Shown piece by piece: positions 26,849 to 64,000 of a stretch of DNA of 64,000 bases. The translations under genes and the position numbers were made by a program. The stretch is from a plasmid. The notes beneath the pieces were generated by a model. It worked only from the letters and a program-made list of their open reading frames with translations. It was not told the DNA's origin and searched no databases. The stretch is taken from NCBI RefSeq assembly GCF_053078305.1, contig NZ_CP166875.1. The stretch is one strand, 5' to 3'. Position 1 is the first letter of the stretch; each line of letters begins with the position of its first letter.

Positions 26849-27467
26849 TGACGCACAGGACGGAAAAAATAATAGCTGCCGGACAGCAGCAACCAGCAGT
26901 CGTCCGGTAAAAAAGACAAACAAGGCGCATTGAGGTCAGCCTTCGCAACAATCCGGCGGCAGATTCTCTACCGCCGTGTTGCCCGTTAACGTTTAACTTC
27001 GTAGGCTAACGTTGCCACAAGCACCGTATTTCCCTGCTCGATACGAAATCCGCAAAGCGAATCCCTCACCATCCAGACAAAACACAGTATCGTCACACAG
27101 ACGACGATTAACATCATTAAAAACGTTCGTTGTGGCATCGCAGCCCCTCCATTGCCTTTCGGCCGTCATCGGGCTACTATAATGTTGTTGAGGCATTACA
27201 GTGGGCCCTGGGTTGATTGATAAAAAAATCGCCTGGGGCTTTCTGCTACATGCCGTCCACAAAACGCTTTCGGCATACAGCCTCAAGCGCCCGCCGCTAT
27301 TCTAATCGTTTTCCAGTCCGCCACAATCCTTTTCATGCCACCACGTATTTTGTGTCAGGGACAGAAATAAAGCCGGAAAGTGACTACGTGTGCACACATC
27401 TGTTTTCCGGGCTGCAGGCATCGTGTTATTTTCTGAAATGCAAAATAATAAAAAACAAGGACACATC

Positions 27468-30434: not shown

Positions 30435-30530
30435 TCAGTCAACCAGTTCCCGGATCAGTTCCAGGAGAGCTATCACTGCGTTAGCCACAGCAACAACCGC
30501 CCTGAGAACGATGATTAACAGGTTAATCAT
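30435..30530 (-). CDS. DinQ/TisB-like small hydrophobic toxin peptide, copy 1 (31 aa)
   Basis: Encodes MINLLIIVLRAVVAVANAVIALLELIRELVD; GGAG 8 nt before ATG; the IALLELIR core matches DinQ as I recall it. Confidence 0.4.
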   Translation of the reverse strand: MINLLIIVLRAVVAVANAVIALLELIRELVD

Positions 30531-30845
30531 CCGCTTCTCCATCAATGGAGAAAGAACACCGTGGTTTGCCCTTACATTGCCTGTCGCCACGTTTTCTATA
30601 GTGTCAGTTATAGACAGTTCTTCTCCGGCCAGAGCACCAAAACCAGCACCACCTGATGTTTTGGCCAGGACTTGCAACCTGTTCATCCCGGTGAACGATA
30701 TGCCGGAAAGAACGTGCCTCAAAGCTGACACACCGAGTATATACTTATACTGTGCTTGCAGAAATATTATTTCAGCCGTATTATTTCATAGTCAGTTATA
30801 GGCAGTTATCTTCCGGTCAGGGCTACCAACTTCGATCCGGAATCG

Positions 30846-30876
30846 CAAAAAAACCGGCCTCACCAGTCGGTTTTTT
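30846..30876 (+). terminator. A-tract / hairpin / T-tract terminator, possible 3' end of an antisense sRNA
   Basis: AAAAAAACCG-loop-CGGTTTTTTT; sits at the far end of the toxin leader. Confidence 0.4.
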
Positions 30877-31077
30877 TGCGTCTGTACCTCCTCCCCGGAC
30901 AGCAGTTCTCTCACTCCCGTTGAATATTTCCTGTTGAATTTTACGAAAATACGGCAAATGGGAGATATCGAATATATTTCCTTGGGTGTAGTCGGTAAAA
31001 ACCAGCTCATGTTTGACTCACAGAAACAGGCTCTGGAAGTACAGAAAGTAATCTGTCCGTAGATTATTAAAGGGCAG

Positions 31078-36689: not shown

Positions 36690-39410
36690 TTACATTCCAG
36701 GTGATGGTGGCTCCCATGTTTTCTCCTGCCGTAACGTATAATTATCATCATGGCTCTCCGATAAACGGGTCTGCTGTCTGATATATTCCCGGTAATACTG
36801 CTCACTGCGTTGACGGTGCAAATCCACGTCCGGACGAGTAATGGTGAAGTGTCCGTTTCCGGTTATTCCCGCTGCATTGTGCCAGGCCACCATTTCTGCA
36901 AACACATCATTAAACTGCTGGTATGAACCTTCCGGCTCAAAACCAAGCTTTCCGTTGCGGCTGAACAGAACTGGCGCAATTAAATCAAGCTTCTCTGCCA
37001 GTTCATTTCGGTCCGTGTGATGGTAGAACACAACCCGATCTCCGTAATCCGTACAGACATTTTTTCCTGTCCGCGTATCCCTGAAATGAACACTTCCATT
37101 TTTCTGAAGACGAGCTTCAAGTTTTGCAACATTATTAAAAAGTGGCGTTCCTCCGGGTTCGCAGAGTACGACACAACGATCAGCATTAGTTGTGCGTCTT
37201 TTATCCTTATTACGCGAGCGACGATCACGATAATCCCAGCCACGTAACTGCGATACTGCAGCCCTGTCTCCCTGAGCCGCCTGTTGTTCCACCCACTGCC
37301 GGTAGGACAAAGGATACCACTTACCCTCCGCAATCAGTGACAACCGCTCTTCCTTCACACTCTCCTTCAGCCTGATCAGCGCCTGCATACGCTGCACTTC
37401 CGCAATATGGTAATGCAGCTTACGCAATTGTGGATCCCGGAACTGCACACGGATATACGCCTTGCGCCGACGGCAGGCAGCATGAATTTCCCGTAACCGT
37501 TCTCCGTAACGTAAGTCGGGTTTACGCCAGTGCTCCTTCCATGCAAGATAACGCGCACGCAAATCTTCCCGCGCAGCTGCACGGGCTTCACGGCGCTCAC
37601 GACGAATCTCAGGATCGCGCCGGAAGCCTGGTTCCACTTCATCACTGGCAGCAAGTTCCGGATTGTAACGACATTCAGGCTTCACCCGTTCGAAAATATC
37701 TGCAGCCGCAATTTCAAATGGCCCGGCCTGAGGCTCGGCACGGGATAACGTCAAATCCGGGTGGATACTGCTGGCCTTCACCGGTGTCAGCTCATGATTA
37801 AACGCATCCACAATCACAAGACCATGATGCTGTTTCTGCAGCATAAGCCCTTTACGCGCAAACATCTCATGACATGCCTGCCAGCTGAAATCCCCGCCAG
37901 CTATCATCTCTTCAATCTGGCTCCTGCACTGAATAAGAGCGTATCCCCACAGACTTTCCTTATCGGAAAACAGTTCACGCTTTATAGCCCCCTGCGGACC
38001 TGTGCCCATCCTCATGCGATACCATTCGTAATCACTGACAGGCTGAGAGCCAATACTGTGTCCCCGGAATCGTTCTCCGGGAACGACCTGAGTAAAAATA
38101 TCCTTCGGTACAGGCTGCCATCCACCATCCAGATCCTGCATATAATCCAGCGTCATTAACGGCCACACACTGTCTGCACGTACTGGTGTCTGTTGTTTAT
38201 CAAATCCATCATGCAGTACCAGATGCCCGTGCTGAATCCCCATCCATAATCCCGCCTCTGCCAGAGTACGGTGTACAGCCAGGCAGCTTTTCAGTTCACC
38301 ATTGCGCGCCATTGCCGGTAAGCGTTCGGCAAAATGACGGCAGGCGTACTGTTTCAGACTCTCCGTTTCTGCCACTTTTTCCGGCCGGATATCAACGTTT
38401 ATGGCTTCCGGATCATAACGACCGGGTGTCCCCACCTGACTGAAAATATCTGTCGGTACAGGCTGATATTCCCCCAGTTTCCGCCCCAGTTTTTCAGCCG
38501 TCCATGACGGTCCGAACGAACTGAGTGCAACACCTTCCCGCGCTCTGTCCCAGCCATCCTTCACCACCAGTTCCCCTTCCTGCATCGTGATATACAGACC
38601 ATCGCTGGCCAGCCGTTTATGCAAAGATAACCAGTCCTGTGCAGGCTCTTCACGCAGCCCGGCAATCGACATCTGAGCAATATATTCCCTGAACGTCTGC
38701 TTTTTCCCGCGTCGCCAGGCATTACGGCGCTCACGTACCAGCGCTGTTTTGCGCACAATACGGTTGCCGGGTGCATGCACAAAGCAGCCATTATCCGGCG
38801 CGAATCCGTGCTTAAGTTCAAGTTCACGACATGCACGGCTGAGTTTTTCCTGGCTCCACGGAAGGCAATTGATATAGCCGGTTTCAGGGTGGACACGATT
38901 CACTGCAACATGTACATGCAGGTTATCCGTGTCTGTATGAACGGCTGCCACATACTGATGTTTTGACAGCTCAAGGGATTTCAGGGTGTGACGCACACAG
39001 TCAAAAAGCTGCTCAGAACGCGGACTTTCGTGCGCAGGCCAGGAGAGAATATAGTGAAAAACAGGATCTGTATCATCTTTGGAAAAATGAGCAAGGTCTG
39101 CTGCTTTCTGCATTTCTTCAGCCGCAGATTCAAGAGACAAACAGTTATGAAAGCAGGTCACACCATAGAAATTCACCCACTGACTGCCGTCTTTCATCAC
39201 ATCAATCAGGGAAACAAATTTTTCATTACGCAGACGTGTTGCATAATCAACAAGACGTCTGAAGCGATTCCGGTGCGGAACCTCACCTTTCACTTCCGTG
39301 TCTGGTCTGAGTTCATCTTCCGGCACATCATCCCGCACTGAGGTGTACGCAATCAGGTCTTCAAAAGAAGACTTTCCGTCGCGTCTTTTTTTCGGAATGA
39401 TGGCATTCAT
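36690..39410 (-). CDS. nikB: conjugative relaxase (NikB-like)
   Basis: 906 aa; N-terminal relaxase domain with histidine motif HVHVAVNRVH; adjacent to nikA-like gene and oriT-like site. Confidence 0.8.
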   Translation of the reverse strand: MNAIIPKKRRDGKSSFEDLIAYTSVRDDVPEDELRPDTEVKGEVPHRNRFRRLVDYATRLRNEKFVSLIDVMKDGSQWVNFYGVTCFHNCLSLESAAEEMQKAADLAHFSKDDTDPVFHYILSWPAHESPRSEQLFDCVRHTLKSLELSKHQYVAAVHTDTDNLHVHVAVNRVHPETGYINCLPWSQEKLSRACRELELKHGFAPDNGCFVHAPGNRIVRKTALVRERRNAWRRGKKQTFREYIAQMSIAGLREEPAQDWLSLHKRLASDGLYITMQEGELVVKDGWDRAREGVALSSFGPSWTAEKLGRKLGEYQPVPTDIFSQVGTPGRYDPEAINVDIRPEKVAETESLKQYACRHFAERLPAMARNGELKSCLAVHRTLAEAGLWMGIQHGHLVLHDGFDKQQTPVRADSVWPLMTLDYMQDLDGGWQPVPKDIFTQVVPGERFRGHSIGSQPVSDYEWYRMRMGTGPQGAIKRELFSDKESLWGYALIQCRSQIEEMIAGGDFSWQACHEMFARKGLMLQKQHHGLVIVDAFNHELTPVKASSIHPDLTLSRAEPQAGPFEIAAADIFERVKPECRYNPELAASDEVEPGFRRDPEIRRERREARAAAREDLRARYLAWKEHWRKPDLRYGERLREIHAACRRRKAYIRVQFRDPQLRKLHYHIAEVQRMQALIRLKESVKEERLSLIAEGKWYPLSYRQWVEQQAAQGDRAAVSQLRGWDYRDRRSRNKDKRRTTNADRCVVLCEPGGTPLFNNVAKLEARLQKNGSVHFRDTRTGKNVCTDYGDRVVFYHHTDRNELAEKLDLIAPVLFSRNGKLGFEPEGSYQQFNDVFAEMVAWHNAAGITGNGHFTITRPDVDLHRQRSEQYYREYIRQQTRLSESHDDNYTLRQEKTWEPPSPGM

Positions 39411-42324: not shown

Positions 42325-42386
42325 GCTGTTTGCTCTGCTCCTGCTGGCAAAAAAGCCCGGGATTTTGCCGGGCTTTGTGGTTCTCA

Positions 42387-44657: not shown

Positions 44658-44689
44658 GAAAACGTCTCCTTCTGCTGAATCAGGTCGCC

Positions 44690-47073: not shown

Positions 47074-47117
47074 AATTCATGAACTCCCTGTATCGCCGCC
47101 CGAAGGCGGCGATAACA

Positions 47118-47552: not shown

Positions 47553-47565
47553 TCTCGTCTCCTTC

Positions 47566-47787
47566 TCAATCTTTAAAGCACGCATCCAGTTCCAGAATTT
47601 CGGTATATGCCTCCATCAGGAGGCGGTTTGCGCGAAACAACGTCTGACGCACCAGACGTTCCGGCAGGGTGTCAGCATTAAAGCTGTACCGCCGCTCCAT
47701 CTCATTCATGGTTGTACGCAGGTCGCACATGGCATTGGCCACATCCGCCACTTCGGCGCGAAGTTTTTCGTGTCCGGCATAGTTCAT
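47566..47787 (-). CDS. hypothetical small protein (73 aa)
   Basis: SD GGAGG before ATG; start overlaps the methyltransferase stop. Confidence 0.4.
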   Translation of the reverse strand: MNYAGHEKLRAEVADVANAMCDLRTTMNEMERRYSFNADTLPERLVRQTLFRANRLLMEAYTEILELDACFKD

Positions 47788-48471: not shown

Positions 48472-48485
48472 ACCAAACTCCTTCT

Positions 48486-48830
48486 CTTACAGAGGGCACC
48501 GGGAGGGCCCCCCTGTGGTGCCCGTTCCCCGCTGCCTGTGGGCTGTTCACCGCGTCCGGTAACGGGTCAGGCCGACCGTGGAATACCGCAGCCGTCGTCT
48601 TTTTGACGGCAAGGTTATGCCGCGAAAGCGGCTTGAAGGGCGTTCATCAGAAAAGGGCGACGGGCTGGCGTACACTGTCACCGGTGCCAGCCGGGAGCGG
48701 TAAAAGCGCCCGTCCCGTGCCCGGCCGGACGCGGGACACTGACCACAGGCAGCGTTTATGCCGCGCCGCGTCAGCCGGCGCAGTAAAAAGAGGAGCACGG
48801 CGACATCCTTTGTCGGAAAAGAAACGGGCG
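48486..48830 (-). promoter_or_regulatory. long imperfect-hairpin element, family B copy 1 (Frpo/ssi-like ssDNA promoter candidate)
   Basis: Near-identical to 49800-50115; distal arms complementary (CGCTGCCTGTGG ... CCACAGGCAGCG); contains TTGACGG. Confidence 0.45.
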
Positions 48831-48855
48831 GTTGCCCGCCCGTCTCCGTCATACT

Positions 48856-49782: not shown

Positions 49783-49799
49783 GGGAATTCTCCTCACAG

Positions 49800-50115
49800 G
49801 AGCACCGGGAGGGAGCCCCTGTGGCGCCCGTTCCCCGCTGCCTGTGGGCTGTTCACCGCGTCCGGTAACGGGTCAGGCCGACCGTGGAATACCGCAGCCG
49901 TCGTCTGTTTGACGGCAAGGTTATGCCGCGAAAGCGGCTTGAAGGGCGTTCATCAGAAAAGGGCGACGGGCTGGCGTACACTATCACCGACGCCAGCCGG
50001 GAGCGGTAAAAGCGCCCGTCCCGTGCCCGCCGGACGCGGGACACTGACCACAGGCAGCGTTTATGCCGCGCCGCGTCAGCCGGCGCAGTAAAAAGAGGAG
50101 CACGGCGACATCCTT
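49800..50115 (-). promoter_or_regulatory. long imperfect-hairpin element, family B copy 2
   Basis: About 97% identical by eye to copy 1 over roughly 310 bp. Confidence 0.45.
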
Positions 50116-50159
50116 TTCCCCTGAACATCCGTCAGCCTTTCTCTGCGGCAAGATCAATC

Positions 50160-50385
50160 CTTAACAGAAAAAAAACCAACAAGCACCCACATAAAAAACA
50201 AAAAACCCAAGCAACACCCACACAAACAAAAAAAACACCCAGAAAACACCCAAAGACAAACAACAATAAAGTAATGAAACCCATAAAACACCCAAAAAAA
50301 GACAAAAAAGATTAAATAGCACTTGAACGCCACCAAAAAAATACTATTATGGGTATAGACACCCAAACGACACCCAAAAGAGGAT
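50160..50385 (+). repeat. parC-like centromere: A/C-rich iterons (ACACCCA and variants)
   Basis: At least 8 direct copies of (A)ACACCCA in a C/A-rich tract directly upstream of the ParM-like gene. Confidence 0.45.
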
Positions 50386-50388
50386 TTT

Positions 50389-51360
50389 ATGATTAAGATA
50401 TTCTGTGATGATGGTTCTACAGCGGTTAAGCTGGCATGGTTTGAAAACGGGGAACTAAAAACCCTCATTAGTCACAATTCTTTCAAGGAAGGCTGGAACA
50501 CATCAGGATTTGGCAGTGAGAAAACTTATAATTACTTAGTCGATGGAGAGAAATATGCGTTTGATACACATAACCCATCAGCAATAGTCACAACCAATAT
50601 TGAGTTTCAATATAGTGTAGAAAATCGTCTCGCTGTACATCACGCACTACTACAAACAGGAATGGAGCCTGGGGATGTAGAGCTTTGGGTTACATTACCT
50701 GTATCTGAATATTTCACTACAGATATGCAAGAGAATTCGGATAACATAAGAAAAAAAATAGAAAACCTGAAAAAAGAAATTACACTGAATAAAGGCAGCG
50801 TATTTTCAATCAAGAAAGTTCATGTATTACCCGAGTCTCTACCTGCAGCGTTGACCTCTCTCGAAGAGGATAAAGTCAGTGATCTTGAAACGTCCCTTGT
50901 CGTCGATCTTGGTGGAACAACTCTTGATTGTGGCGCTATAGCTGGCAGATATAAAAATGTAACACAAGTATCCGGAGAACCTGGTCTTGGCGTAACTCTG
51001 GTAACAACGGCGACAATGAATGCCCTGAAACAGGCAGGAACGCATACCAGCTACTATATTGCAGATCAACTGGTTAGAAACAGAAATGCTGATGATTTAT
51101 TCGAAATTGTTGTTAATGACAGCAGTAAAATAGATGATGTGAAATCAGTAATTGAAAACAGTATTACAAGACTTTCAGACAGAGTTATAAATCATTTACA
51201 CTCGTACAAAGGGATAAATCGTATATACATGACTGGTGGTGGTGCGGAACTAATCTACCCTGCAATAAAAAAAGCATTCCCCTTATTAAAGGATAAAGTA
51301 AAAATTTTACCAGATGCGCAATTAGCCCTTGTTATTTCTATTGCTGAAATAAATCGATAA
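50389..51360 (+). CDS. parM: actin-like plasmid segregation ATPase (ParM/StbA family)
   Basis: N-terminal IFCDDGSTAVKLAW and phosphate-2 motif VVDLGGTTLD; overall resemblance to R1 ParM; 323 aa. Confidence 0.75.
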   Translation: MIKIFCDDGSTAVKLAWFENGELKTLISHNSFKEGWNTSGFGSEKTYNYLVDGEKYAFDTHNPSAIVTTNIEFQYSVENRLAVHHALLQTGMEPGDVELWVTLPVSEYFTTDMQENSDNIRKKIENLKKEITLNKGSVFSIKKVHVLPESLPAALTSLEEDKVSDLETSLVVDLGGTTLDCGAIAGRYKNVTQVSGEPGLGVTLVTTATMNALKQAGTHTSYYIADQLVRNRNADDLFEIVVNDSSKIDDVKSVIENSITRLSDRVINHLHSYKGINRIYMTGGGAELIYPAIKKAFPLLKDKVKILPDAQLALVISIAEINR

Positions 51361-51371
51361 TGAGGTACAGG

Positions 51372-51923
51372 ATGAGTGATGAACGTCGTAAATTATGGCT
51401 ATACTTATATCCTGATGAGCCACAGCAAAAATCCGCAATAGAAACCATTGAAGAAATACCTCAAAGACAACGTTCTGATTTCTTCAGAGATAGTATTGTT
51501 GCAGGTATTGCATTATCAAAACTCGATAAACGATTACCTGCACTTGTATCTATGTTACTACAGCAAGATAGTAATATAGATACTCTTGTACGTATTTTAA
51601 AAATACTATTCCCCAAGCTTGATATTGACTCAACGGAAGATAAATCTACACTCTGTGCCGTTGCTTGGCAAAAAAGATGTCGGGATGAATTACAACAAGG
51701 CACACCATGGTCTGCCTGGTTTGCGATTAGTGAGGATGAATATAATCATCATCTTAATCATCCAGAATCAAACAGTCAGGTACGTGCATTATGGGCTTAT
51801 GATGAAAACGAGCAGAAAAAGGATATACAGGATAAAGAGAGAACGCCCTTTCCGGAGGCCAACACCAATACAAGTTCAGAAACATTGAGTAATGCTAAAA
51901 AATTATTTGGTAATTCAAATTAA
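51372..51923 (+). CDS. putative partition adaptor (ParR/StbB-position)
   Basis: Immediately follows the ParM-like gene; no motif recognised, assignment by position only. Confidence 0.35.
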   Translation: MSDERRKLWLYLYPDEPQQKSAIETIEEIPQRQRSDFFRDSIVAGIALSKLDKRLPALVSMLLQQDSNIDTLVRILKILFPKLDIDSTEDKSTLCAVAWQKRCRDELQQGTPWSAWFAISEDEYNHHLNHPESNSQVRALWAYDENEQKKDIQDKERTPFPEANTNTSSETLSNAKKLFGNSN

Positions 51924-51936
51924 TTATTCAAAGAAA

Positions 51937-51958
51937 ATCCCGGTCGAAGGGCCGGGAT
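51937..51958. terminator. bidirectional hairpin between convergent parR-like gene and helicase
   Basis: ATCCCGG-tcgaaggg-CCGGGAT. Confidence 0.45.
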
Positions 51959-52033
51959 GTTTACACGTTAACCACCCTGCAATTCTGCCACTCCTGATGC
52001 GGAATAACAGGACAGGACCGGGAACAGTCAGGC

Positions 52034-53560
52034 TCACTTTTTTCTCCGTCGTCTGCCACGCGCTCTGCTGCCTGTATTTTTTTCCCGGGATGCCGGCTCA
52101 CTCTGCAATGCCGGGGGAGGTACCTGTTTCAGGAGCTGGCGCAGCACACTGTTGAGGATCAGCGTCCGCCGAGCCCGTGTGGCAGCCACATAGAGCAGGT
52201 TGAGTTCATCCCGCAGTTTCTCTTCAAATTCCTGCACATTGTCCGTTCCCGGCTGCTCAAGCTCCTGAAAATCCTCATGCAGCCTCACTGTGTCCCATTC
52301 CAGGCCTTTGGCCCTGTGCACCGTGGTGACAGTCACGGCAGCAGCCTTTTCGTCACGGACCTCATATTTTCGCAGCGTGGCCACATGTTCCGGCAGCGGC
52401 GAAAACTTCTGAATGATAGCCACTGACTGCAGCATTTCCGCGTCCCGGCTTGCCTTTGCCGTCGCCTCATAGTCAGAGAACGACTCCCACGCAGCAAAGC
52501 GAGCCGGCTCCCGGATTTTTTCCGTCATTCCCACAGAAAACCACCACAGATCCAGCAGGCGGGCAACCGGCCAGGCATTCATACCGTTGATCCAGTATGT
52601 TTTCTGCTTCCTCCGGGCCGCGTGAAGCGCAGCACCAATCACGCCCATCACTGTCCGGCACAGCACCGCACAGTGAGGCATATTCCTCTCGGGTTTCAGC
52701 AACAGACGGTCATCACCGCCAAGCCCACAGACTTTTTTCGTCTCCCCGTCCAGAGCCAGCACAGCATTTGCCACATCTGCCACACAGGGACCGAAACGGA
52801 AACTGCCGGTAAGCCACAGCCTGTCTGCCGTGGCCAGAGAGGGGGTATTCAGCGCATCCACGGCACCCCGGAAGCGATAAATCTGCTGATGTGGATCACC
52901 CACCATCACCAGCGTTCCACGGTGGCGCAGGACCAGGTCGGAGATCACCGGACTGGCGTCCTGGGCTTCATCAAACAGGATTTCATCGTACTTTGCGGAC
53001 AGATCCGGCTGCGAAAGCTGGTACAGCTTCAGATACAGATCATGAACGACCGGAAAGTCATCACTGCGGTCGCACATTCTTTGCCAGAGACGCACGGCCA
53101 GCGGCAGCACCTCTGCTGCGCGCAGTGGCGGCCTGGCACGGACATGCACCTCAGACAACGTCGTGTCCGCACTGTTCATGAAAGCCTGTAGGGTTTCCCT
53201 GACGGCCGCAGCCAACGGCCACTGGCGCAGTGAAAGCGCCCCGGCGATATCAGTAATGCCCAGGGAAGGCACGAGACGGTGGGAGTAATGTCGTCCAAAT
53301 TCCGGCCACGCCAGCTGATGTGCAGTCCGGCAACAGACATTCACCGGGAAGCGTGCCTGAGCCTCCTCCCGGACAGACCGGTTGAATGCGATATAGAGCA
53401 TACGGCGTTCAGGCCGGGCCTGCGCATAAGCCACCAGTGTGGCTGTTTTGCCGGTGCCGGCAAAAGCCCTGACAACCAGTCGCTGTCCCTGCCAGTTAAT
53501 GACAGCCTGTTGTTCAGCGGTCGGAGCGTGACGGATTTTCCTGACCGGGTGCTGAGTCAT
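52034..53560 (-). CDS. UvrD/Rep-like superfamily-1 DNA helicase (about 508 aa)
   Basis: Walker A AGTGKTAT, motif II FDEAQD, C-terminal VTTVHRAKGLEWDTV; ATG overlaps the upstream stop (ATGA). Confidence 0.7.
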   Translation of the reverse strand: MTQHPVRKIRHAPTAEQQAVINWQGQRLVVRAFAGTGKTATLVAYAQARPERRMLYIAFNRSVREEAQARFPVNVCCRTAHQLAWPEFGRHYSHRLVPSLGITDIAGALSLRQWPLAAAVRETLQAFMNSADTTLSEVHVRARPPLRAAEVLPLAVRLWQRMCDRSDDFPVVHDLYLKLYQLSQPDLSAKYDEILFDEAQDASPVISDLVLRHRGTLVMVGDPHQQIYRFRGAVDALNTPSLATADRLWLTGSFRFGPCVADVANAVLALDGETKKVCGLGGDDRLLLKPERNMPHCAVLCRTVMGVIGAALHAARRKQKTYWINGMNAWPVARLLDLWWFSVGMTEKIREPARFAAWESFSDYEATAKASRDAEMLQSVAIIQKFSPLPEHVATLRKYEVRDEKAAAVTVTTVHRAKGLEWDTVRLHEDFQELEQPGTDNVQEFEEKLRDELNLLYVAATRARRTLILNSVLRQLLKQVPPPALQSEPASREKNTGSRARGRRRRKK

Positions 53561-54183
53561 TTTGCCGTTGCGTCCTCCCCGTCCGTCATCCCGGCCAGAG
53601 CGACCTGTTTTTTCTCCCACCGTCGGTCCCGGATGGCCAGCCAGCGTTGAGCATTTTTTGCCTCATCCTCAGAAACCAGCCCGGCAGGCTTACCGTCGAG
53701 GTCATAGCGGGTGGCACCGGTGACAGCGGTACGCAACAGATAGACACGGCGGGAGGTGATACAGGATACGGCACAGTCCCATTCATCCCGGGTGAGTCCG
53801 GCTTCAGGGTGCTCAGCCAGCCAGGCAGGAATATCGCGGGAGATACCGACCCTGAGAGGCAGAAAACCGCCGCCTTCAGCGCGAAGATGCGGGAAAATCG
53901 CCTTGACCTTTTCCATGCACTGGTCGGTGAACTCCCGTGTCCAGTGCTCTCTGAGGGGTCTGCGTGGTGGTCTTCCTTTCCTTTTTTTTCCGACGGCAGC
54001 AGGCGCAGGAGACGCATCCTGGATGGGGGCTGGCAGCTGCTCATCAGCAGCAGCCGGTGGTGCCCCCACTTCCGGTACAGGCGAAATGACAGTCTCTGTT
54101 TTATCGACGACAGGTGGTGGTGAAATAACGCGACGTTTTTTCACCACAATGACGGGCGTTTTCTTTTCCTGATTCCTGGCCAT
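53557..54183 (-). CDS. ProQ/FinO-domain RNA-binding protein (FinO-like)
   Basis: Basic/Pro-rich N-terminus; C-terminal domain aligns by eye with FinO (PLRVGISRDI ... GATRYDLDGKP ... EDEAKNAQRWL). Confidence 0.55.
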   Translation of the reverse strand: MARNQEKKTPVIVVKKRRVISPPPVVDKTETVISPVPEVGAPPAAADEQLPAPIQDASPAPAAVGKKRKGRPPRRPLREHWTREFTDQCMEKVKAIFPHLRAEGGGFLPLRVGISRDIPAWLAEHPEAGLTRDEWDCAVSCITSRRVYLLRTAVTGATRYDLDGKPAGLVSEDEAKNAQRWLAIRDRRWEKKQVALAGMTDGEDATAK

Positions 54184-54635
54184 TAATACCCCGACAAGAT
54201 TAAATTCTGGTTAACGATATCATTATACAGCGAATAATATAATTATGGTTCACGTATTATTATCCGTGACTCTTTCCTGGTAACTCCCGCATAATAACTT
54301 CACTTTTCCAGTATTCCAGAAGATGATGTTTTTTCCTCGATAATAAAAATGTGCCAATATGGAAATAAGAAATCGGATTTTTTATCAGCATACGCAAATT
54401 TTCAGATAACAATGAATACAGATGTATTTTATATACACAGATAAAACCGCGCAACAGACATAAATATGACAGTAGCATGAAAAAGCAGAGAGAGACAGGG
54501 TGATACAGAAAAGTAACTATTTTTTTAGCTATAGTATTATTGGTTTTACCTATTTTCGTGATTGTGTTTCTGTATATTGGGGGTTCGCGCCCATTTCCTC
54601 TAAAAGTCTCACCTTGCTTAGGTAATTAATTGAAT

Positions 54636-55373: not shown

Positions 55374-58300
55374 ATGCAGAAGTACAAGAAAAGAATTAGT
55401 ATATTAACAAAAAGTGAAATAAATGAATTATATCAAGTCCCCTCTTTTAATCCTGTTGAAAGGGATGAGTTTTTTTCGCTGGATATCAGCCTTAAAAGAG
55501 AAATTGATAAAATAATAAATATAGAAAGCAGGGTGTATCTGATATTAATAACAGGGTATTTCAGATATAAACCTGTGATTCCTGAATTTACATTAAAAGA
55601 CGTAAAAAGGGATGTGAAATATATTATCCAGACATATTATAAAAACGAAAGTACTAATCTCAATTTAAACATACCTAAAAGTACAAAGTACCGCCTTGTT
55701 AAACGAATGCTTTCTACTCTAGGATTTGAACAACTCACCCCATCTATAAAAAATGAGTTAAGTGAACGTCTGAATGATGTTGCTACTATATGTATGGAAC
55801 CAAAATATATTTTTGATGAATTACTTGCTTTTTTAGGACAGCGGCGTATAGCTCTTCCTGGATACAGTACTGTCCAGAACCTCGTTTCAGATGCTTTAAA
55901 CTTTGAAAGGAAAAGGACAATTAATATTTTGTCAAAGAGAATTTATCCTGCCACTGCACAAAAGATTACATCCATCATCCATGATGATGGAATATTAAAT
56001 TCCATCAGGGGATATAATTATAGCACGAGAGACTTCTCAGCATCAGAAATAGAAAATGAATTAAGAACTCACAATGTGATAAGTAGTATTTACTATGAAA
56101 TAAAAGATATAATTAATTCATTAGGTATATCCCAGGGAAACATGGAGTACTATGCAACTATCGTAAAACACAGTACAACATTCAGACTTAAGCGACACCC
56201 TAAATGGCAAGGAATACTTTATTTGTGCTGCTACTTGTACTTCAGATACAGAGAGATAAATGATAAAATAATCACAGCCTTCAGATATTTAGTAAAAAAA
56301 CATAAAGACGCTTCAGTTTTGTTTGCAAAAGCTCGGGCAACAGAGGAAATAGATCTAATAAATAAAAAGCTTAAGTTTGCGAGTAAAATATTTAACTTCT
56401 TCGTTGATAGTAACATTGAAGACAGCATCCCTTTTGGATATGTTCGTGAAAAGGTTTTTTCACTTATATCGAAAGATGATATGCATCTTGTGAGTGAATT
56501 TTTTGACAAAAATAAAATCGATGTAATTGAATATCAATGGCAGTATATTGACAGCCATCACCTTAAGATCGCCAATTCAATCCGAAAGCTTTTTCTGGCT
56601 ATAGATATAGTATATGACAACGAGAAGTCTGTTATTGGCCAGCAAATTACTGCTGCCAAGGATGATCTCAGAGGAAAAGGAAAGCTGGATGCTAAGGATC
56701 TGAGGGTAATTCATCCATCCGAGAAAAATTACATTGTAAAAGAAGGAGAAATTAACACTCAACGATTCGAATTTCATATGTACAGCAGGGTATCTAACCA
56801 TCTGGAAAACGGTGTCTTTTATGCTGCGGAGAGTGAACAAAACAAGAGACTGGAAGATGATCTCATAGAACGAAGTTACTGGCATAAGAATAAATCGATT
56901 TTGATAGAGAAAACAGGCCTTGAACGACTTATCACACCAATAACGCAGACTCTTAATGAGCTGGAGAATACCTTTAGCGATAAACTGGCTCGTATAACCA
57001 TTGGAATAAACTCAGATGCTAATGAGTTTGTGAAAAAACAACCACACTCCAACAGATTACAGTGGAGTCTGGCCAGTAAAAAATGGAAGACCAGCATCGA
57101 TAATCCGATTTACAATCAGATAAAAAATATCGGAATAGTTGACGTAATGAAGTATGTAAACAATGAGACGAATTTTTTGTCTGTGTTTAATGCCATATCA
57201 TCCAGGAAAAATAATCTTGAAGCTGACTATAATGACCTTCTTGCCTGTATATTTGGTAATGGCGCAAATTATGGTGTTCACAGAATGGCATCTGCATCAG
57301 ACCGTAGTATTGGAATACTACGTGATGTGAATGACAAATTCATTCGTCCAGAAACAACAGGAATGGCCAACACAGTAATATCTGATGCAATTGCAAATCT
57401 TTCTGTATATAAATACTGGACGATAAATGAAGATTCTCCATTTGGAAGTGTTGATGGGCAGAAGCACACTTGCAGAATAAATACATTTAAAGCCCGTTAT
57501 TCTGCCAAGTATTTCAGAAAGGGGAAAGGGGTTTCTGCGATGACACTGGTATCTAATCATGTGCCATTATCAACTGTGGTAATTTCTCCAAATGAATATG
57601 AAGGTCATTTTGCATTTGACTTGTTATATAACAACACCAGTGAAATACAACCAAAGTCATTAGCGACTGACAATCATGGTATAAACAACGTTAATTTTGC
57701 GATTCTTGACATTTTTGGCTATCAGTTTTCACCACGTTATGCAAAATTCAAGAAAATATTTAATGAATTATTTGATGTTATACTGGAGAGTGATAAACTC
57801 ATTATAAAACTTAAAAAACAATTTAACTTTAAGCTCATTGAACATGAATGGGAAAACATCCAACATATTATTTGTTCTTTAAGCAGAAAAACAACCATTC
57901 AAAGTACGGTTGTTAAGAAGTTATCTAATACAAAGCGTAGCAACAAGACATTAGCAGCACTTCGGGAGTATGACCGAGTTATAAAATGCATATATGTCCT
58001 GGATTATGCTGACAATAAAACCTTAAGGCAATTTGTGCAACAAGCACTGAACAGAGGTGAAGCTTATCATCAACTAAGAAGAGCAATAGCATCAGTAAAT
58101 GGAAATCAATTTCGCGGTGGTAATGACTACCAAATAGATCAATGGAACGACTGTGCGAGGTTAATAGCTAATTGTGTAATCTATTATAATTCAGCAATAT
58201 TATCCAGGCTGGTCGAGAAATTTGAAAAAGAAAATAATAAAAAAGCGATAGATGTTCTGGCTAACTTATCCCCAGTAGCATGGAGACACATTCTCCTTGG

Positions 58301-58412
58301 AGGGAATTATTCTTTTGAAGATCAAGTTGCGATCACAAATTTGGACAGTCTTTTGGAGGGAGTAGACCCACTAAGTGATATCGGAGATATTGAGTCCGAA
58401 TATGACGGTTAA
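55374..58412 (+). CDS. tnpA: Tn3-family transposase TnpA (1012 aa)
   Basis: Size, N-terminal region and position inside the IR-bounded element. Confidence 0.8.
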   Translation: MQKYKKRISILTKSEINELYQVPSFNPVERDEFFSLDISLKREIDKIINIESRVYLILITGYFRYKPVIPEFTLKDVKRDVKYIIQTYYKNESTNLNLNIPKSTKYRLVKRMLSTLGFEQLTPSIKNELSERLNDVATICMEPKYIFDELLAFLGQRRIALPGYSTVQNLVSDALNFERKRTINILSKRIYPATAQKITSIIHDDGILNSIRGYNYSTRDFSASEIENELRTHNVISSIYYEIKDIINSLGISQGNMEYYATIVKHSTTFRLKRHPKWQGILYLCCYLYFRYREINDKIITAFRYLVKKHKDASVLFAKARATEEIDLINKKLKFASKIFNFFVDSNIEDSIPFGYVREKVFSLISKDDMHLVSEFFDKNKIDVIEYQWQYIDSHHLKIANSIRKLFLAIDIVYDNEKSVIGQQITAAKDDLRGKGKLDAKDLRVIHPSEKNYIVKEGEINTQRFEFHMYSRVSNHLENGVFYAAESEQNKRLEDDLIERSYWHKNKSILIEKTGLERLITPITQTLNELENTFSDKLARITIGINSDANEFVKKQPHSNRLQWSLASKKWKTSIDNPIYNQIKNIGIVDVMKYVNNETNFLSVFNAISSRKNNLEADYNDLLACIFGNGANYGVHRMASASDRSIGILRDVNDKFIRPETTGMANTVISDAIANLSVYKYWTINEDSPFGSVDGQKHTCRINTFKARYSAKYFRKGKGVSAMTLVSNHVPLSTVVISPNEYEGHFAFDLLYNNTSEIQPKSLATDNHGINNVNFAILDIFGYQFSPRYAKFKKIFNELFDVILESDKLIIKLKKQFNFKLIEHEWENIQHIICSLSRKTTIQSTVVKKLSNTKRSNKTLAALREYDRVIKCIYVLDYADNKTLRQFVQQALNRGEAYHQLRRAIASVNGNQFRGGNDYQIDQWNDCARLIANCVIYYNSAILSRLVEKFEKENNKKAIDVLANLSPVAWRHILLGGNYSFEDQVAITNLDSLLEGVDPLSDIGDIESEYDG

Positions 58413-58478
58413 CAACATGATAAATAATGGTTTTTATGCTAAGAGTGAGACTTTTGGAGGAAATGGGCGCAGAACCCC

Positions 58479-58702
58479 TGTATCTGCCGTTCGGTTTTTG
58501 CACGAAGTTTTTCTGAGCTTTTACCGAACTGCATACGTTGCAGTTTCGCAACCAGCGCCTTCAGCCGGTTGATTTCGGAAGCATAAGCCGCCACCCGCTG
58601 TGAGAGCAGGCGGTTGTATTCAGCCATCTGGCGGATGGTGTCCTGTTGCGTCTGCAACAGTGCCCGCAGGCGGGCGTTCTCATGAGCAAGTGAGGTGTCC
58701 AT
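58479..58702 (-). pseudogene. IS66 tnpC 5' fragment
   Basis: Leucine-zipper-like N-terminus (ENARLRALLQ...) ending inside the Tn3-family IR. Confidence 0.5.
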
Positions 58703-58721
58703 ATCCTCACTTTACAACGGG

Positions 58722-59069
58722 TTATATGCGGATTCCAGCGCGTTCCGTTCGTTTCGGGTGCTTCCAGTTGATACCTTCAAGAAGCATGGATAACTGAGCC
58801 GGAGTAAGGTGCACCTTGCCGTCACGGGTGACTGGCCAGACGAAGCGGCCCCGCTCCAGGCGTTTGGTGAAGAGGCACAGTCCGTCACTGTCAGCCCACA
58901 ACACTTTTATCTGGTCACCCCGGCGTCCGCGGAAGATGAACAGGTGTCCGGAGAACGGGTCATCCTTCAGGACGTTCTGAACTTTTGATGCCAGGCCGTT
59001 AAAGCCATTTCGCATATCGGTGATACCTGCAACCAGCCAGATACGCGAACCTGCAGGGAGAGATATCAT
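58722..59069 (-). CDS. IS66-family accessory protein TnpB (orf2)
   Basis: 115 aa with RIWLVAGITDMRNGFNGL motif. Confidence 0.65.
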   Translation of the reverse strand: MISLPAGSRIWLVAGITDMRNGFNGLASKVQNVLKDDPFSGHLFIFRGRRGDQIKVLWADSDGLCLFTKRLERGRFVWPVTRDGKVHLTPAQLSMLLEGINWKHPKRTERAGIRI

Positions 59070-59746
59070 CAGTGGCTGCTCCCTTTTATTTCGCGGATAA
59101 GTGTCTGTAATAACGCCGGCGTCAGTTTACCTTTAAGCCTGAGAGTTCCGGCCGGCAGAACCAGCTCACAACACAGACTGTCGGACGGTGTATTTATCTG
59201 CTCTGGTTCCTGTGCGGGGGCCGGGATTTTATTATCCGGCTCCGGCGTTAACGTCACGGGAAGCAGTGCCGGCATATTTTTTCCGGAAGGCAGCAGGCCA
59301 CCTTTCCGGTATTGATGGCGCCAGTTGAAGAGCAGGTTATCGTTGATTCCGTTTTCCCGGGCGATCTGCGCCACACAGGCTCCGGGCTGCAGTGACTGCT
59401 CCACTAAGGCGATTTTAAACTCATAAGGGAAGTTGGGCCGCCGGGGACGTTTTTTTACCACGGGGGCTTCGGATATAACGGTGCTTTCAGGACGTACGAC
59501 TGGTACCGTGGAAAATTGTCCGTAAAGGCAGGCATCAAGTTCCTGCTCCGACATGCCTGCGGGCAAAGGCCACGAAAGGCCAGCTCTCCGAAAGCGCACG
59601 AACATACTACAAACTGTTGATTTTGGTACACCCAGGCGACGCCCGGCCACAACCCGGGGTAAATGTTCTTCAAAGTGAAGACGTAAAGCTTCAGTGATCC
59701 AGGTCCGGTGTTTCATACGATAGTGTCCATTAAAAATGATGGACAT
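59069..59746 (-). CDS. IS66-family orf1 (HTH transposase accessory protein); true start may be 59716
   Basis: C-terminal half FPYEFKIALVEQSLQPGACVAQIARENGINDNLLFNWRHQYR typical of IS66 orf1; stop overlaps tnpB start. Confidence 0.6.
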   Translation of the reverse strand: MSIIFNGHYRMKHRTWITEALRLHFEEHLPRVVAGRRLGVPKSTVCSMFVRFRRAGLSWPLPAGMSEQELDACLYGQFSTVPVVRPESTVISEAPVVKKRPRRPNFPYEFKIALVEQSLQPGACVAQIARENGINDNLLFNWRHQYRKGGLLPSGKNMPALLPVTLTPEPDNKIPAPAQEPEQINTPSDSLCCELVLPAGTLRLKGKLTPALLQTLIREIKGSSH

Positions 59747-59964: not shown

Positions 59965-60049
59965 CTTTAATACACCTCTGTTTTTTGCCCCCATCATCTG
60001 TTGAGTTTCGGGAGCCGCGGTTTTGACGTTTTGCGGGGACCTGCCTTTT

Positions 60050-60420
60050 GTTCCCTCCGGTATTCACCATCACCTGTTTGAGAACCTTCGCCGCAAGGGG
60101 CATCACTGCCACGGCCGGAAACGACTGTCCGGGGGCAGACCGCAAAAGTTTTTGCCTGCTTTTGGGCAAAAAGTTTTGCGGGATGTGCATTTCACCCCTG
60201 GACTGGCGGAGACGGTTGTGGCTGTCTTTGCCCCCGGCGACAGGGGCTTAAACAGGTGTATGGCACCGGACACAACAACGGGCAGGGACCCGCCGCAACG
60301 ACGAAGAGCGCGTGCGCGAAACGGCGTTGCCCCTTACATCCCGGCGGCCTTTTGCCGGGATGCCAGGAGCGCAGGCCACGGCGCGACAGAGGCGGCGCGA
60401 CCGGAACGGTCGCTGCAAGC
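60050..60420 (-). promoter_or_regulatory. repeated hairpin element, family A copy 3
   Basis: Shares the CAAAAGTTTTTG hairpin and the 60-bp block CGCAGG(T/C)CACGGCGCGACAGAGGCGGCGCGACCGGAACGGTCGCTGCAAGCC with copy 2. Confidence 0.4.
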
Positions 60421-60856
60421 CCGGGGTTTCGCGTCAGGGATGGAAGCCCGCCAGGGCGGAGACAGCTTCGCTGGCTCCGTTCACGACAGCCCGCCCCGCC
60501 TGGGGGACGCCCGGAAAAGGCATAAGCAGGAGAACAACAAAACAGACAATAATCAGGGCAGCAGTAATCAGAGTCAGAACAGGAGGAAAAAGAGAATAAT
60601 CAAAGGGAAGGTGATGTGATTTCCGACAGGTCATAAACAGAGAAGGCGGGGGAAAAGAACGGGCGCCGCAGGCGCGCGTTCATCCCCGTTCCCGGAGGGA
60701 ATCGGCCTTCCTGGCAGTCTGGTTGTTCATGCTGCTGCAATGTCAGCAAGGAGAAAGGGGCCACCGGCGAACCAGCAGCCCCTTTATAAAGGCGCTTCAG
60801 TGCAGTCAGACCAGCATCAGCCCTGAAAAGGCGGGCCTGCGCCCGCCTCCAGGTTG

Positions 60857-61015
60857 CTACTTACCGGATTCGTAAGCCATGAAAGCCGCCACCTCCCTGT
60901 ATCCGTCTCTGTAACGAATCTCGCACAGCGATTTTCGTGTCAGATAAGTAAATATCAACAGTGTGAGACACACAATCAACACACACCAGACAAGAGAGCT
61001 GCGTGGTAGTTTCAT
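60857..61015 (-). CDS. hok: Hok/Gef-family type I toxin
   Basis: Encodes [52 protein letters not shown]. Confidence 0.8.
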
Positions 61016-61072
61016 GGCCTTCTTCTCCTTGCGCAAAGCGCGGTAAGAGGCTATCCTGATGTTGTCAGACAT
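60857..61072 (-). CDS. mok-like overlapping leader frame
   Basis: In-frame upstream extension ([19 protein letters not shown]-) of hok, as in hok/mok/sok loci. Confidence 0.4.
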
Positions 61073-61289
61073 ATGGGATGCCTCGTGGGTTAATGAAAAA
61101 TTAACTACGGGGCTATCTTCTTTCTGCCACACAACACGGTAACAAACCACCTTCACGTCATGAGGCAGAAAGCCTCAAGCGCCGGGCACATCATAGCCCA
61201 TATACCTGCACGCTGACCACACTCACTTTTCCTGAAAATAACCCGCTCATTCAGGCTGTTTACGGGTAATCTGTGTGATTGTTGCCGCA

Positions 61290-62009
61290 TCACGCCGCCT
61301 CCCGGAGTTTGTTCGGCACCATCCACCGCTCCATCTCACGGACAGCGTGACCCGCCTCCCTTGCTGCCATACCTGCCTCTGCGATGACCTGCCAGAATGG
61401 CATATCCTGCCACTGCCAGCGTTCCATCCCGGCCAGTGACGGAAAACGCTCACCCCACTGCCAGAACAGGGTTTCCAGGTCATGCTCTGCCACCCGGTCA
61501 CTCCAGCGTGCATACCAGCTTCCGACTGTTTCCGGTGAATGGAACGCCAGTTCGATTTCAGCCTGAGCGACCAGCGTCTGGTACGCACGGGCTTTCTGCT
61601 CTGCCTCCCGTGCCTGCTGGCGGCTGTACTTCTGCATGACCAGCACGGATTTATGGCGACTGCGTTCCCTGACACGGAACCGCACCGACGGGAACAACCG
61701 CTCTGCTGCATCACCGGGAAGGGGAAGGAGGCAGACCTCGCCCTGTGTTTCAATCAGCACATCGACGGCATACAGCCACTGAGAACGGTTGCCGCGCAGT
61801 TCTTCTGCGGTCAGGGACGGCATGAAAAATCGCAGGTCAGACAGCGAAATCCTGCGGCTTCCGTTCAGACAGCGGAAAAACGCCCCCGCATACGGATATT
61901 CCGCCAGCGTGTTACCCTGGTGGCGGCGTTTTTCTGTCTCCGCCACCGCCCGCCATGCGGCCTGTTGCTCTGTGCTGAGAGGAACCAGTGCCTGTGAACG
62001 TGCGCTCAT
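61290..62009 (-). CDS. psiA: plasmid SOS-inhibition protein PsiA
   Basis: 239 aa starting [22 protein letters not shown]; coupled downstream of psiB. Confidence 0.8.
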
Positions 62010-62440
62010 GCCTGACCTCCTTCCGCCATCAGGATATGGATGATGTCACTGACGCTGTATCCCTGTTCATCCAGTGATGCCGCCAGTGCCAGTGAATGGC
62101 TGACAGCTTCCGGTGCAAACCGCCGCTGCACCTGAACCACCGCAAACGGCTCACCACCGGCATTCACCAGAACCAGCACCCAGACCTGAGAGACATCGCC
62201 CGGTGAACATAACGCCAGGTGAAAACGTTCGTGGGCAGGCGTGAAACGGACCTGGACGGGGAAAAAGCCGCCGAACTCGCTGCCGTACTCGCCATTCATC
62301 GTCCAGTTGTCCGGCGCATCCAGTTCCCGCATCACGGCGTGTGTCAGCTCACGGCGTTCATCACTTCCGGCAGCCCGGATATCTTCATATTCCTGTGCGC
62401 TCATGGTCTGTAATACATTCAGGGTCAGTTCAGTTTTCAT
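62006..62440 (-). CDS. psiB: plasmid SOS-inhibition protein PsiB
   Basis: [41 protein letters not shown]... recognised as PsiB. Confidence 0.9.
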
Positions 62441-62494
62441 CACGGTATCTCCCTTGCTGCCGCCCCGTCTCCGGCGGGGCGGTGTGGTTGTTCA

Positions 62495-64000
62495 TCAGGC
62501 GGCATCAGCCAGGTTATCGGCGCGTTCAGTGGCATCCGTCTGTGGACGTGGTGAACCCATCCAGCCAGGCACCCAGCGGTTGTCTTTCATGTGGAACTCT
62601 GCATGTTCAGCGGCATCGCCTTTCTTCATCTTCTCCGCGTCCCGTGCGGCACCGGACAGTCCGGCATCATTCAGGGCATCGATAATCTGCGGCTTTTTCA
62701 GGTGACCGAAGAAGTTTGCTTTTGTCGGCTGCCACCAGTCACGCATGTGAAAGCCGATGGCGCTCTCCAGCGAGTCCAGCGGACTGCGTGACGTGTGACC
62801 ATACTCGCGGGTCTGAACGCCGTGGATGCTGCACGCGGTGCAGAAACTGAGCAGTGATAACAGCACGTCCTGGCTGAGTGACAGGAACGTCGTCATGTCC
62901 CGTGCCCATCCCTCCGGTAACAGGGCAGCAAGACGGGCTTTTTCTGCCATCATCGCCATGAATGCGGCACCGTCCTTCCCCGATGGCGCATCGCTGGTCA
63001 GCGAATAATGTTTACATTCCAGGCTGATTTGTGCTGGTTTACTGTACGCTCCGCTGCCAAACACATTCAGGCAGAGCGTCCATGCCAGCAGTGCCAGAGA
63101 TTTGTCCGGTTGCTGCATGAGTGCCGCCTGGACTGCCAGCGTGCGTTCGGAAGACATTTTCGTCAGCAGTGGCAGACTGATTTCCTCCACTGACGCTTTC
63201 TCCTGCACCTGTTCCGTGCGGTCAGCGTCGTCAGTCACGTCATCTTCACTGCGCAACTGCACACCACGCTGGACACACACATTACCGTAACGCCAGGACA
63301 CCACCACGCCACTTCCGGCACGCATCTCCGGCGTCCACGCCCTGACCTTCGCCATGCAGTCAATCAGCTTCATTTCTGCTGCCAGCAGGTCAGATTCCTC
63401 ACACTGGTTTTCCAGCGCGTCGTAACGCATCATCAGTTCGTTCAGGCGTTCTTCTTCTGCCTCCGTCAGCACCGCTTCCGGCTCCGGCAGGTTGCGGTAT
63501 GCCCGGGAATCTTCACGGCACTCACCGACAGGCTCCATGCGTCCGGCGCACCATTCCCAGCCTTCGGCTTCCCGAAGGTGTTCAGCGACAGCCTGGAGTT
63601 TTTCCAGCAGGGCGGCATCGAGCGCCACGCAGTCCACATAGCCACCCTCGTCATCGCTGAACAAATCAGTACGCAGTTCGTCAGGTGAGAAAGCATCAGC
63701 CCCCACGAAGCGGAATTTAGTGTTGTCCTTCACCGCCACTTCACTTTCCGTAATCAGATTGCGGATAACCCGCACATCCGGTTTACCGCCCCATCCTGAC
63801 TGGCAGGCCGCTTCAAACACCTGCACCTGACGCGCGGTGTCGTTCTCCAGCGCCAGCGCCTGACAGTGCTCGGTGGTGATGCGGTCTTCTGCCAGCGCAT
63901 CGAGGATGACAGGCGCAAGGTCTGCCAGTTTCAGCATTCGCTGAACGTGGCGGGGCGAATAACCCAGCAAATCACCGATTTGTGCAGGTGTTTTGCCTTC
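62495..64000 (-). CDS. ParB-like nuclease-domain protein of the leading region, 5'-truncated by window end
   Basis: Frame stays open to the window edge; N-terminal visible part has ParB-type HTH (IGDLLGYSPRHVQRMLKL). Confidence 0.55.
   Translation of the reverse strand, partial: EGKTPAQIGDLLGYSPRHVQRMLKLADLAPVILDALAEDRITTEHCQALALENDTARQVQVFEAACQSGWGGKPDVRVIRNLITESEVAVKDNTKFRFVGADAFSPDELRTDLFSDDEGGYVDCVALDAALLEKLQAVAEHLREAEGWEWCAGRMEPVGECREDSRAYRNLPEPEAVLTEAEEERLNELMMRYDALENQCEESDLLAAEMKLIDCMAKVRAWTPEMRAGSGVVVSWRYGNVCVQRGVQLRSEDDVTDDADRTEQVQEKASVEEISLPLLTKMSSERTLAVQAALMQQPDKSLALLAWTLCLNVFGSGAYSKPAQISLECKHYSLTSDAPSGKDGAAFMAMMAEKARLAALLPEGWARDMTTFLSLSQDVLLSLLSFCTACSIHGVQTREYGHTSRSPLDSLESAIGFHMRDWWQPTKANFFGHLKKPQIIDALNDAGLSGAARDAEKMKKGDAAEHAEFHMKDNRWVPGWMGSPRPQTDATERADNLADAA

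Follow-up and report, generated by a model that had tools for sequence, protein, structure and literature searches.

Two plasmid-borne type I toxin-antitoxin modules, hok/mok/sok (parB) of R1 and flm/stm (flmA-flmB-flmC) of F, are the closest described relatives of the locus analyzed here. The standard hok/sok mechanism has been reviewed (PMC1635323, PMC4147584, PMC9841398), and both Flm and R1 Hok are reported to be experimentally toxic (bioRxiv 10.1101/2025.08.07.668861). The hokC/mokC/sokC (gef) locus of E. coli K-12 is chromosomal and abuts IS186; chromosomal hok loci have been reported not to mediate post-segregational killing. Earlier work has described Hok as enriched in leading regions and on large conjugative plasmids (bioRxiv 10.1101/2025.08.07.668861; PMC11541004), and the occurrence of hok/sok (flm/stm) next to psiA is textbook knowledge. 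The locus described here lies in a 64,000-nucleotide stretch of plasmid DNA (contig NZ_CP166875.1 of RefSeq assembly GCF_053078305.1), which we refer to as the window. Its exact allele is already in public records, where it is partly annotated.

The sequence-only reading of the window had claimed a hok/mok-type locus adjoining psiA, with a recognizable Hok peptide, and both claims were borne out. On the minus strand, an ORF of 71 codons plus stop occupies exactly 60857..61072 and ends in ...ESGK; an internal ATG at 61015 opens the hok coding sequence (61015..60857, minus strand; 52 amino acids plus stop). The 52-residue peptide matches Pfam HOK_GEF (PF01848) with E = 3.8e-21 and 74.8 bits (cut-off 22). 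It also matches the NCBIfam profile "Hok family toxin" (NF007279) from end to end (positions 1–52 of 52) with 125.2 bits (cut-off 73), and its sequence is that of FlmA from plasmid F (100% identity). The leader of the hok mRNA (61184..61013, minus strand) matches Rfam RF01794 with 87.2 bits (gathering score 59, E = 1.7e-19), the match spanning model positions 1–157 of 157. Directly upstream of hok lies psiA (61290..62009, minus strand; Pfam PsiA, 1.9e-39), followed upstream by psiB (62006..62443, minus strand; Pfam, 3.1e-63). Taken with these neighbors, the three profile matches are far beyond chance. A separate Rfam hit within psiA ("Betaproteobacteria-1", 24.8 bits, below the gathering score of 49.4) was dismissed as a chance match. 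Only the coding part falls within 60857..61072. The whole hok/sok locus extends over ~60754–61219 and also takes in the promoter, the 5′ leader, the 3′ regulatory elements and the greater part of the Sok gene, all of them beyond that interval.

We conclude, with a probability of roughly 85%, that the locus is an intact type I toxin-antitoxin module of the hok/mok/sok family, in the lineage of F flm/stm and R1 parB. The sequence-level hallmarks of a hok/mok/sok locus are all present and intact. Transcription of hok, processing of its mRNA, toxicity and plasmid stabilization are inferred from the sequence of the locus; for toxicity, the expectation follows from the identity of the peptide to FlmA, which is reported to be toxic. 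R1 was represented in these comparisons by its published primers and probe (PMC1635323) and by the R1-type locus of pAMSC2. All published R1 hok and Sok primers match the pAMSC2 locus exactly and the hok probe matches with one mismatch; in R1 coordinates, its mok and hok ATGs lie at 116–118 and 174–176. Homology of the window with F flm and pAMSC2 spans the whole 600 bp at 96%, and the hok mRNA is 96–97% identical to those of the F, R1-type, pO26_2 and pO165 loci. Judged by the probe sequence, R1 Hok has His where the window peptide has Tyr39.

The hok promoter lies at 61190..61219 on the minus strand and consists of a −35 box TGGTCA (61219..61214), an 18-nt spacer and a −10 box TATGAT (61195..61190). 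A consensus promoter scan recovered it, reporting two sites in the region against 0.3 expected. TATGAT is the −10 box that was defined by mutation in R1 (PMC9841398), and the promoter region is that of F and pAMSC2 save for one spacer base. The box sits six bases upstream of +1 at 61183, a position set by the exact match of the R1 5′ primer, GGCGCTTGAGGCTTTCTGC (PMC1635323). The 3′ end (60791) was set by blunt-ended complementarity of the transcript to its own 5′ end; the first seven bases, GGCGCUU, are exactly complementary to 60797..60791. These ends give a predicted full-length mRNA of 393 nt (61183..60791, minus strand), against 398 nt in R1. Its minimum free energy (MFE) is −167.1 kcal/mol (z = −6.4), and none of 100 shuffled sequences was as stable. 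Nucleotides 1–7 are paired with nucleotides 387–393 in both the MFE and the centroid structure, forming the blunt-ended tac/fbi pairing.

Each regulatory element of the R1 mRNA has a counterpart in this transcript. The tac element at the 5′ end (GGCGCUUGAGGC; 61172..61183, minus strand) is base-paired to the 3′ end in the MFE structure and identical in F, pAMSC2, pO26_2 and pO165; it keeps G4, C5 and U6, which are needed in R1 (PMC9841398). Its partner fbi, at the 3′ end of the full-length mRNA (...CACUGAAGCGCC; 60791..60802, minus strand), is joined to tac in both the MFE and the centroid structure, and the five plasmid loci compared do not differ in this element. The ucb, or anti-Shine-Dalgarno, box (mRNA nucleotides 67–77, GAUAGCCCCGU; 61107..61117, minus strand) pairs with the mok Shine-Dalgarno region in the full-length fold, and its A70, G71, C72 and C74 are as in R1 (R1 positions from PMC9841398). 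The mok Shine-Dalgarno sequence GAGG (mRNA nucleotides 100–103; 61081..61084, minus strand) stands 8 nt before the mok ATG and is sequestered in that fold. Complementary to it is dcb, UAGCCUC (61047..61053, minus strand), which was assigned from this complementarity and from its conservation with the R1-type and F loci. The hok Shine-Dalgarno region AAGGAG (61025..61030, minus strand), read from the sequence, corresponds to about R1 positions 159–164, and substitutions near the hok Shine-Dalgarno sequence abolish Hok translation in R1 (PMC9841398). The R1 loss-of-function positions named in that study, namely G4, C5, U6, A70, C74, the mok ATG and the hok ATG, are all unaltered here.

Toward the 3′ end, a G+C-rich "roadblock" hairpin (60822..60853, minus strand) was folded separately and gave −25.1 kcal/mol (z = −3.6). 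The processed mRNA is predicted to end at ~60828, which gives a length of 356 nt; the primer used to define the 3′ end of mature R1 hok mRNA matches exactly and stops at this position, at the base of the hairpin. Just past fbi, a second hairpin is followed by a U-rich tract (60754..60785, minus strand; −26.1 kcal/mol, z = −2.1), and this is a possible transcription terminator. A consensus terminator scan of the region reported neither of the two 3′ hairpins. When fbi was removed, the 5′ end refolded in the MFE structure of the trimmed mRNA, and the published structure with tac-ucb and Shine-Dalgarno-dcb pairing was absent from that fold. We therefore rejected the fold of the trimmed mRNA as evidence of the refolded state.

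The sequence-only reading had also expected a sok-like RNA on the plus strand over the mok start, which it did not place precisely. Homology allows this RNA to be placed at ~61065..61122 (plus strand) by two independent references, the primers used for in vitro synthesis of R1 Sok and the annotation of K-12 sokC. The R1 primers (PMC1635323) put the 5′ end at 61065 and the 3′ end at 61122; in a four-way alignment, annotated sokC maps to 61063..61123. The predicted RNA is ~58 nt long (ends ±2 nt) and complementary to nucleotides 62–119 of the hok mRNA. Its overlap with the mok start is 8 nt (61065–61072), made up of the mok ATG and five further bases; the 59-nt K-12 sokC overlaps the mokC start by 9 nt. 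A putative Sok promoter at 61029..61057 (plus strand) has a −35 box TTGCGC (61029–61034), a 17-nt spacer and a −10 box TATCCT (61052–61057). The consensus promoter scan of the region did not report it, since only 7 of its 12 bases match the consensus. It was assigned by homology, from its conservation (neither hexamer varies between the window, R1-type and F loci) and its distance to the 5′ ends of R1 and K-12 Sok. The −10 box overlaps dcb here, which fits the R1 Sok promoter mutation that falls within dcb (PMC9841398).

In the predicted fold of the 58-nt Sok (−20.8 kcal/mol, z = −5.1), the first 10 nt form an unpaired 5′ tail, after which come a long hairpin and CUUCUUU; R1-type Sok and F FlmB share this architecture of tail and hairpin. 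In silico, the locus would encode in cis an antisense RNA of ~60 nt that is transcribed from a promoter of its own, leaves its 5′ tail unpaired and carries a terminator-like hairpin. RF01794, although described as "sok antitoxin", is modeled on the hok sense strand: its K-12 match (L003, 502..654) lies opposite annotated sokC. For this reason we read the match in the window as the hok leader, and the strand of an RF01794 match should not be taken as the strand of the antisense RNA.

Viewed as a whole, the F flm/stm locus shares with the window its orientation and its place, an F-type leading-region block in which it directly follows psiB-psiA. Its mRNA is 95.9% identical, has the same predicted length of 393 nt and carries identical tac and fbi ends, and the Sok and FlmB hairpins are of equal length. 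The two differ in the antisense 5′ tail and mok start, where the window has UCAGACAUAUGGG and F has UCUAAGCAUGCAGG, so that the window lacks an FlmB-type antisense recognition sequence. The R1-type locus shares the −10 box, tac/fbi, ucb, dcb, both Shine-Dalgarno sequences and the context of the hok ATG, together with the 3′ hairpin, the Sok promoter and the Sok 3′ end. Its mRNA is longer by 5 nt, a difference that lies entirely in a longer Sok hairpin region, and the R1 Sok 5′ tail, ACUAGACAUAGGG, differs from that of the window. By analogy with R1, the overall mechanism is presumed to be identical.

The leader frame sets this allele apart from both prototypes. An in-frame, mok-like frame upstream of hok had been claimed in the earlier reading, and this was confirmed: the two ATGs are 57 nt apart, in a layout unlike that of R1 and F. 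The frame (61072..60857, minus strand; 71 codons plus stop) starts at the ATG at 61072, runs through the hok Shine-Dalgarno sequence and ATG in frame, and specifies an N-terminally extended Hok. It has the features of a leader ORF, with its own Shine-Dalgarno sequence (GAGG, 61084..61081), an overlap with the hok initiation region and a start that is covered by Sok. The flmC ATG of F precedes hok by 58 nt, in the +1 frame, and opens a frame of 70 amino acids; mok of R1 is likewise in the +1 frame, with its ATG 58 nt upstream. Compared with the R1-type and F sequences, the mok ATG of the window is displaced by one base: CCCAUAUGUCUGAC. The +1 frame of R1-type Mok is still recognizable here (NCBIfam NF010277, "modulator of post-segregation killing protein", 134 bits, positions 4–70), but the canonical 70-residue +1-frame Mok has no start codon and a UGA precedes its frame. 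The only ATG served by a Shine-Dalgarno sequence is the one in frame with hok, 57 nt upstream.

Such a layout has a precedent in the K-12 chromosome. There, mokC and hokC share one stop codon and have starts 57 nt apart, as in the window, whereas the hokC leader has only ~72% nucleotide identity with that of the window. In R1, translation of mok is needed only up to the hok Shine-Dalgarno sequence, and the amino acid sequence of Mok is irrelevant (PMC9841398). Because of this and because mokC/hokC has the same layout, we regard in-frame mok as compatible with function; by analogy, the change should not disable the system. We know of no in-frame plasmid hok allele that has been experimentally tested.

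Homologues of the allele were counted in a plasmid collection (PLSDB) and in E. coli RefSeq records, which together hold thousands of hok homologues. An identical copy of the 111-nt Sok/mok region is carried by 126 PLSDB plasmids (from E. coli, E. albertii and Klebsiella); among E. coli RefSeq records, 76 have it. It is a minority form, found in ~2.7% of matching PLSDB records (~4,750 PLSDB matches). The Hok peptides that accompany the same allele in pO26_2 and a pO165 plasmid carry different substitutions. Because of these copies and their linkage to differing peptides, the in-frame Sok/mok form is, on sequence evidence, a maintained allele rather than a sequencing error. We rejected a count of in-frame alleles by tblastn coverage of the 71-residue ORF, since the open hok frame extends 5′ of its ATG in R1-type loci as well and coverage would not discriminate between the two. 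The same 71-residue ORF is annotated as "stm: cell killing protein" in AP026747.1.

Existing annotation of these loci is uneven. RefSeq calls Hok inconsistently, as shortened proteins of 41 or 32 amino acids (WP_096937776.1, WP_233329041.1), and Mok as a partial pseudogene or as "DUF5431 family protein, incomplete". Examples are found in pAMSC2 (L001, 3158..3374), F (L002, 5010..5135) and pO26_2 (L004, 3828..3975). Sok RNA is not annotated in the RefSeq plasmid records of these loci.

The elements described above suggest how the module would operate. The weak promoter (61219..61190, minus strand) would give rise to a stable 393-nt hok mRNA, in which tac-fbi pairing, together with ucb hiding the mok Shine-Dalgarno sequence, would prevent binding of both ribosomes and Sok. 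Slow trimming from the 3′ end to the G+C-rich hairpin (~60828) would free tac, and refolding of the leader would expose the mok Shine-Dalgarno sequence and AUG and the Sok target. As long as the plasmid is present, short-lived Sok (~61065..61122, plus strand) would be made constitutively and its free 5′ tail would pair over the mok start, blocking translation of mok and hence of hok and marking the duplex for RNase III. After plasmid loss, Sok would decay first, the stored processed mRNA would be translated and the 52-residue membrane toxin would kill the cell. One step would be specific to this allele: ribosomes starting at the in-frame leader ATG would also make a 71-residue extended Hok, as in mokC/hokC.

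The surrounding DNA places the locus in a mosaic. Positions 20000–44000 of the window are 99.7% identical to the IncK2/Z plasmid pL2-87, and the blocks at 38873–46248, 45897–49763 and 49762–54580 are 99.2–99.98% identical to it. These blocks skip the native ssb/ParB-like/psiA block and the group II intron of pL2-87, which has its own psiA followed by ardA and no annotated hok at that site; the window lacks the native ssb-psiB-psiA block at the usual site. Positions 59976–64000, by comparison, align to F (L002, 6017–1992) at 96.2% identity and carry a ParB-like gene, psiB, psiA and flm. The junction with this F-like sequence lies at ~59976, ~880 bp downstream of the hok stop. On the other side of the junction are an IS66-family element (58439..59746, minus strand), which has kept TnpA and TnpB and only the first 87 amino acids of TnpC, and, abutting it, a Tn3-family transposase of 1012 amino acids (55374..58412, plus strand; DDE_Tnp_Tn3, 5e-117). 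Since 59976–64000 is F-like and the other blocks are pL2-87-like, the alignments indicate that recombination has brought the locus, within a fragment derived from F, into an IncI-complex backbone and that the plasmid is a mosaic.

Two small ORFs were noted in this segment and its relatives. In pO26_2 and the pO165 plasmid, an extra 519-nt ORF (hypothetical protein WP_001178554.1) lies between psiA and the hok promoter (L004, 4162..4680; L005, 2662..3180); it is absent from that place in the window (61220–61290), F and pAMSC2. Downstream of hok in the F-like segment, a 66-residue ORF (60434..60634, minus strand) has a hydrophobic core, …LFPPVLTLITAALIIVCFVVLLLMPF…, and no Pfam match. It may be the small hypothetical protein found at the equivalent place in pO26_2.

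The setting and the displaced mok start raise an alternative, namely that the one-base shift removed the canonical Mok start and altered the coupling, that Hok is poorly made, and that the locus is a crippled or silent relic, carried as a passenger without stabilizing the plasmid. In favor of this, the R1-type Mok frame is retained behind a UGA, with no start codon of its own. Moreover, the F-like segment abuts the truncated IS66 element and the Tn3-family transposase inside an IncK2/Z-type backbone, and a locus in a displaced fragment between IS66 and Tn3 remnants could be a passenger. The plasmid also has a pnd-like hok-family module and ParM partition and may not need hok/sok. We nevertheless consider a relic improbable. 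The promoters, tac/fbi, ucb, both Shine-Dalgarno sequences, both ATGs and the Sok hairpin are intact and match functional prototypes. Neither the sequence of Mok nor its translation past the hok start is required in R1 (PMC9841398), mokC/hokC is in frame as well, and at least 126 plasmids, whose Hok sequences have diverged, retain the allele.

That the module is active but serves mainly in early establishment, plasmid-plasmid competition or phage exclusion as a leading-region gene, as might be suggested by its place beside psiA-psiB, by the enrichment of hok/Sok among toxin-antitoxin genes in leading regions near psiA/psiB/ssb with a proposed role in establishment (PMC11541004; bioRxiv 10.1101/2025.08.07.668861) and by the reported protection against phage T4 by hok/Sok on a high-copy plasmid, is very unlikely: hok-psiA-psiB lies ~20 kb from the relaxase gene (36690..39410), the presumed site of the transfer origin, with ParM, helicase and transposon sequences in between, so that the block is not early-entering in its present backbone, and post-segregational killing has been demonstrated for the nearly identical loci of R1 and F (PMC1635323, PMC4147584). 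Post-segregational killing and these other roles are not mutually exclusive.

Further type I loci were found in the window. A second, independent hok-family locus occupies 26924..27291 on the minus strand, with an RF01794 match of 124.7 bits at 27292..27136 and a 50-residue Hok/Gef peptide, MPQRTFLMMLIVVCVTILCFVWMVRDSLCGFRIEQGNTVLVATLAYEVKR, at 27138..26986 (Pfam, 1.3e-12), which we take to be PndA-like. It has a 67-residue leader ORF that starts 58 nt upstream in the +1 frame and a predicted 368-nt mRNA with tac/fbi pairing. The pndA/pndB/pndC systems of IncI and IncB plasmids, which we regard as represented here by this second locus, belong to the same family as the locus beside psiA and share with it the RF01794 leader, the Hok/Gef peptide, tac/fbi pairing and a leader ORF overlapped by the antisense region; they differ in their 50-residue toxin of clearly different sequence, their 368-nt mRNA and the +1 frame of the leader ORF, 58 nt upstream. 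At 30792..30879 (plus strand) there is a match to Rfam AgrB (47.7 bits, gathering score 40), a family that represents the antisense RNA from the dinQ type I toxin locus. The opposite strand encodes ...MEKRMINLLIIVLRAVVAVANAVIALLELIRELVD, the C-terminal end of an ORF at 30435..30731 (minus strand) that has no Pfam match; the sequence resembles, we assume, the DinQ toxin. With this AgrB/dinQ-like site, the plasmid may have three type I toxin-antitoxin loci.

The window, R1-type and F loci vary mostly in the stretch complementary to Sok. Calculated duplex energies were compared for the tails concerned. The first 14 nt of the cognate Sok are predicted to pair with the window leader at −23.6 kcal/mol; the R1-type Sok tail pairs with it at −15.7 kcal/mol, with a bulge, and the F FlmB tail at −6.2 kcal/mol. 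The window Sok tail and the leader of the pnd-like locus gave −7.1 kcal/mol, and no meaningful Sok cross-pairing is predicted between the two hok-family loci of the window. These values are compatible with distinct antisense specificity groups, a suggestion that, we stress, is speculative and comes from the energy calculation alone. It is conceivable, though doubtful, that the allele forms a separate antisense "immunity" group, in which its Sok and those of R1 or F type would not replace one another between co-resident plasmids and the in-frame leader may yield a toxic 71-residue Hok, and that hok alleles diversify at the recognition site and thereby avoid cross-protection.

Beyond annotation, the locus matters little. 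It would be one of several maintenance modules on a mosaic IncK2/Z-type plasmid, along with the pnd-like locus, the dinQ/agrB-like site and ParM, and this set of modules helps to explain the persistence of such plasmids. With its in-frame mok and its distinct Sok 5′ tail, the allele offers a means of testing whether hok alleles fall into separate antisense specificity groups.
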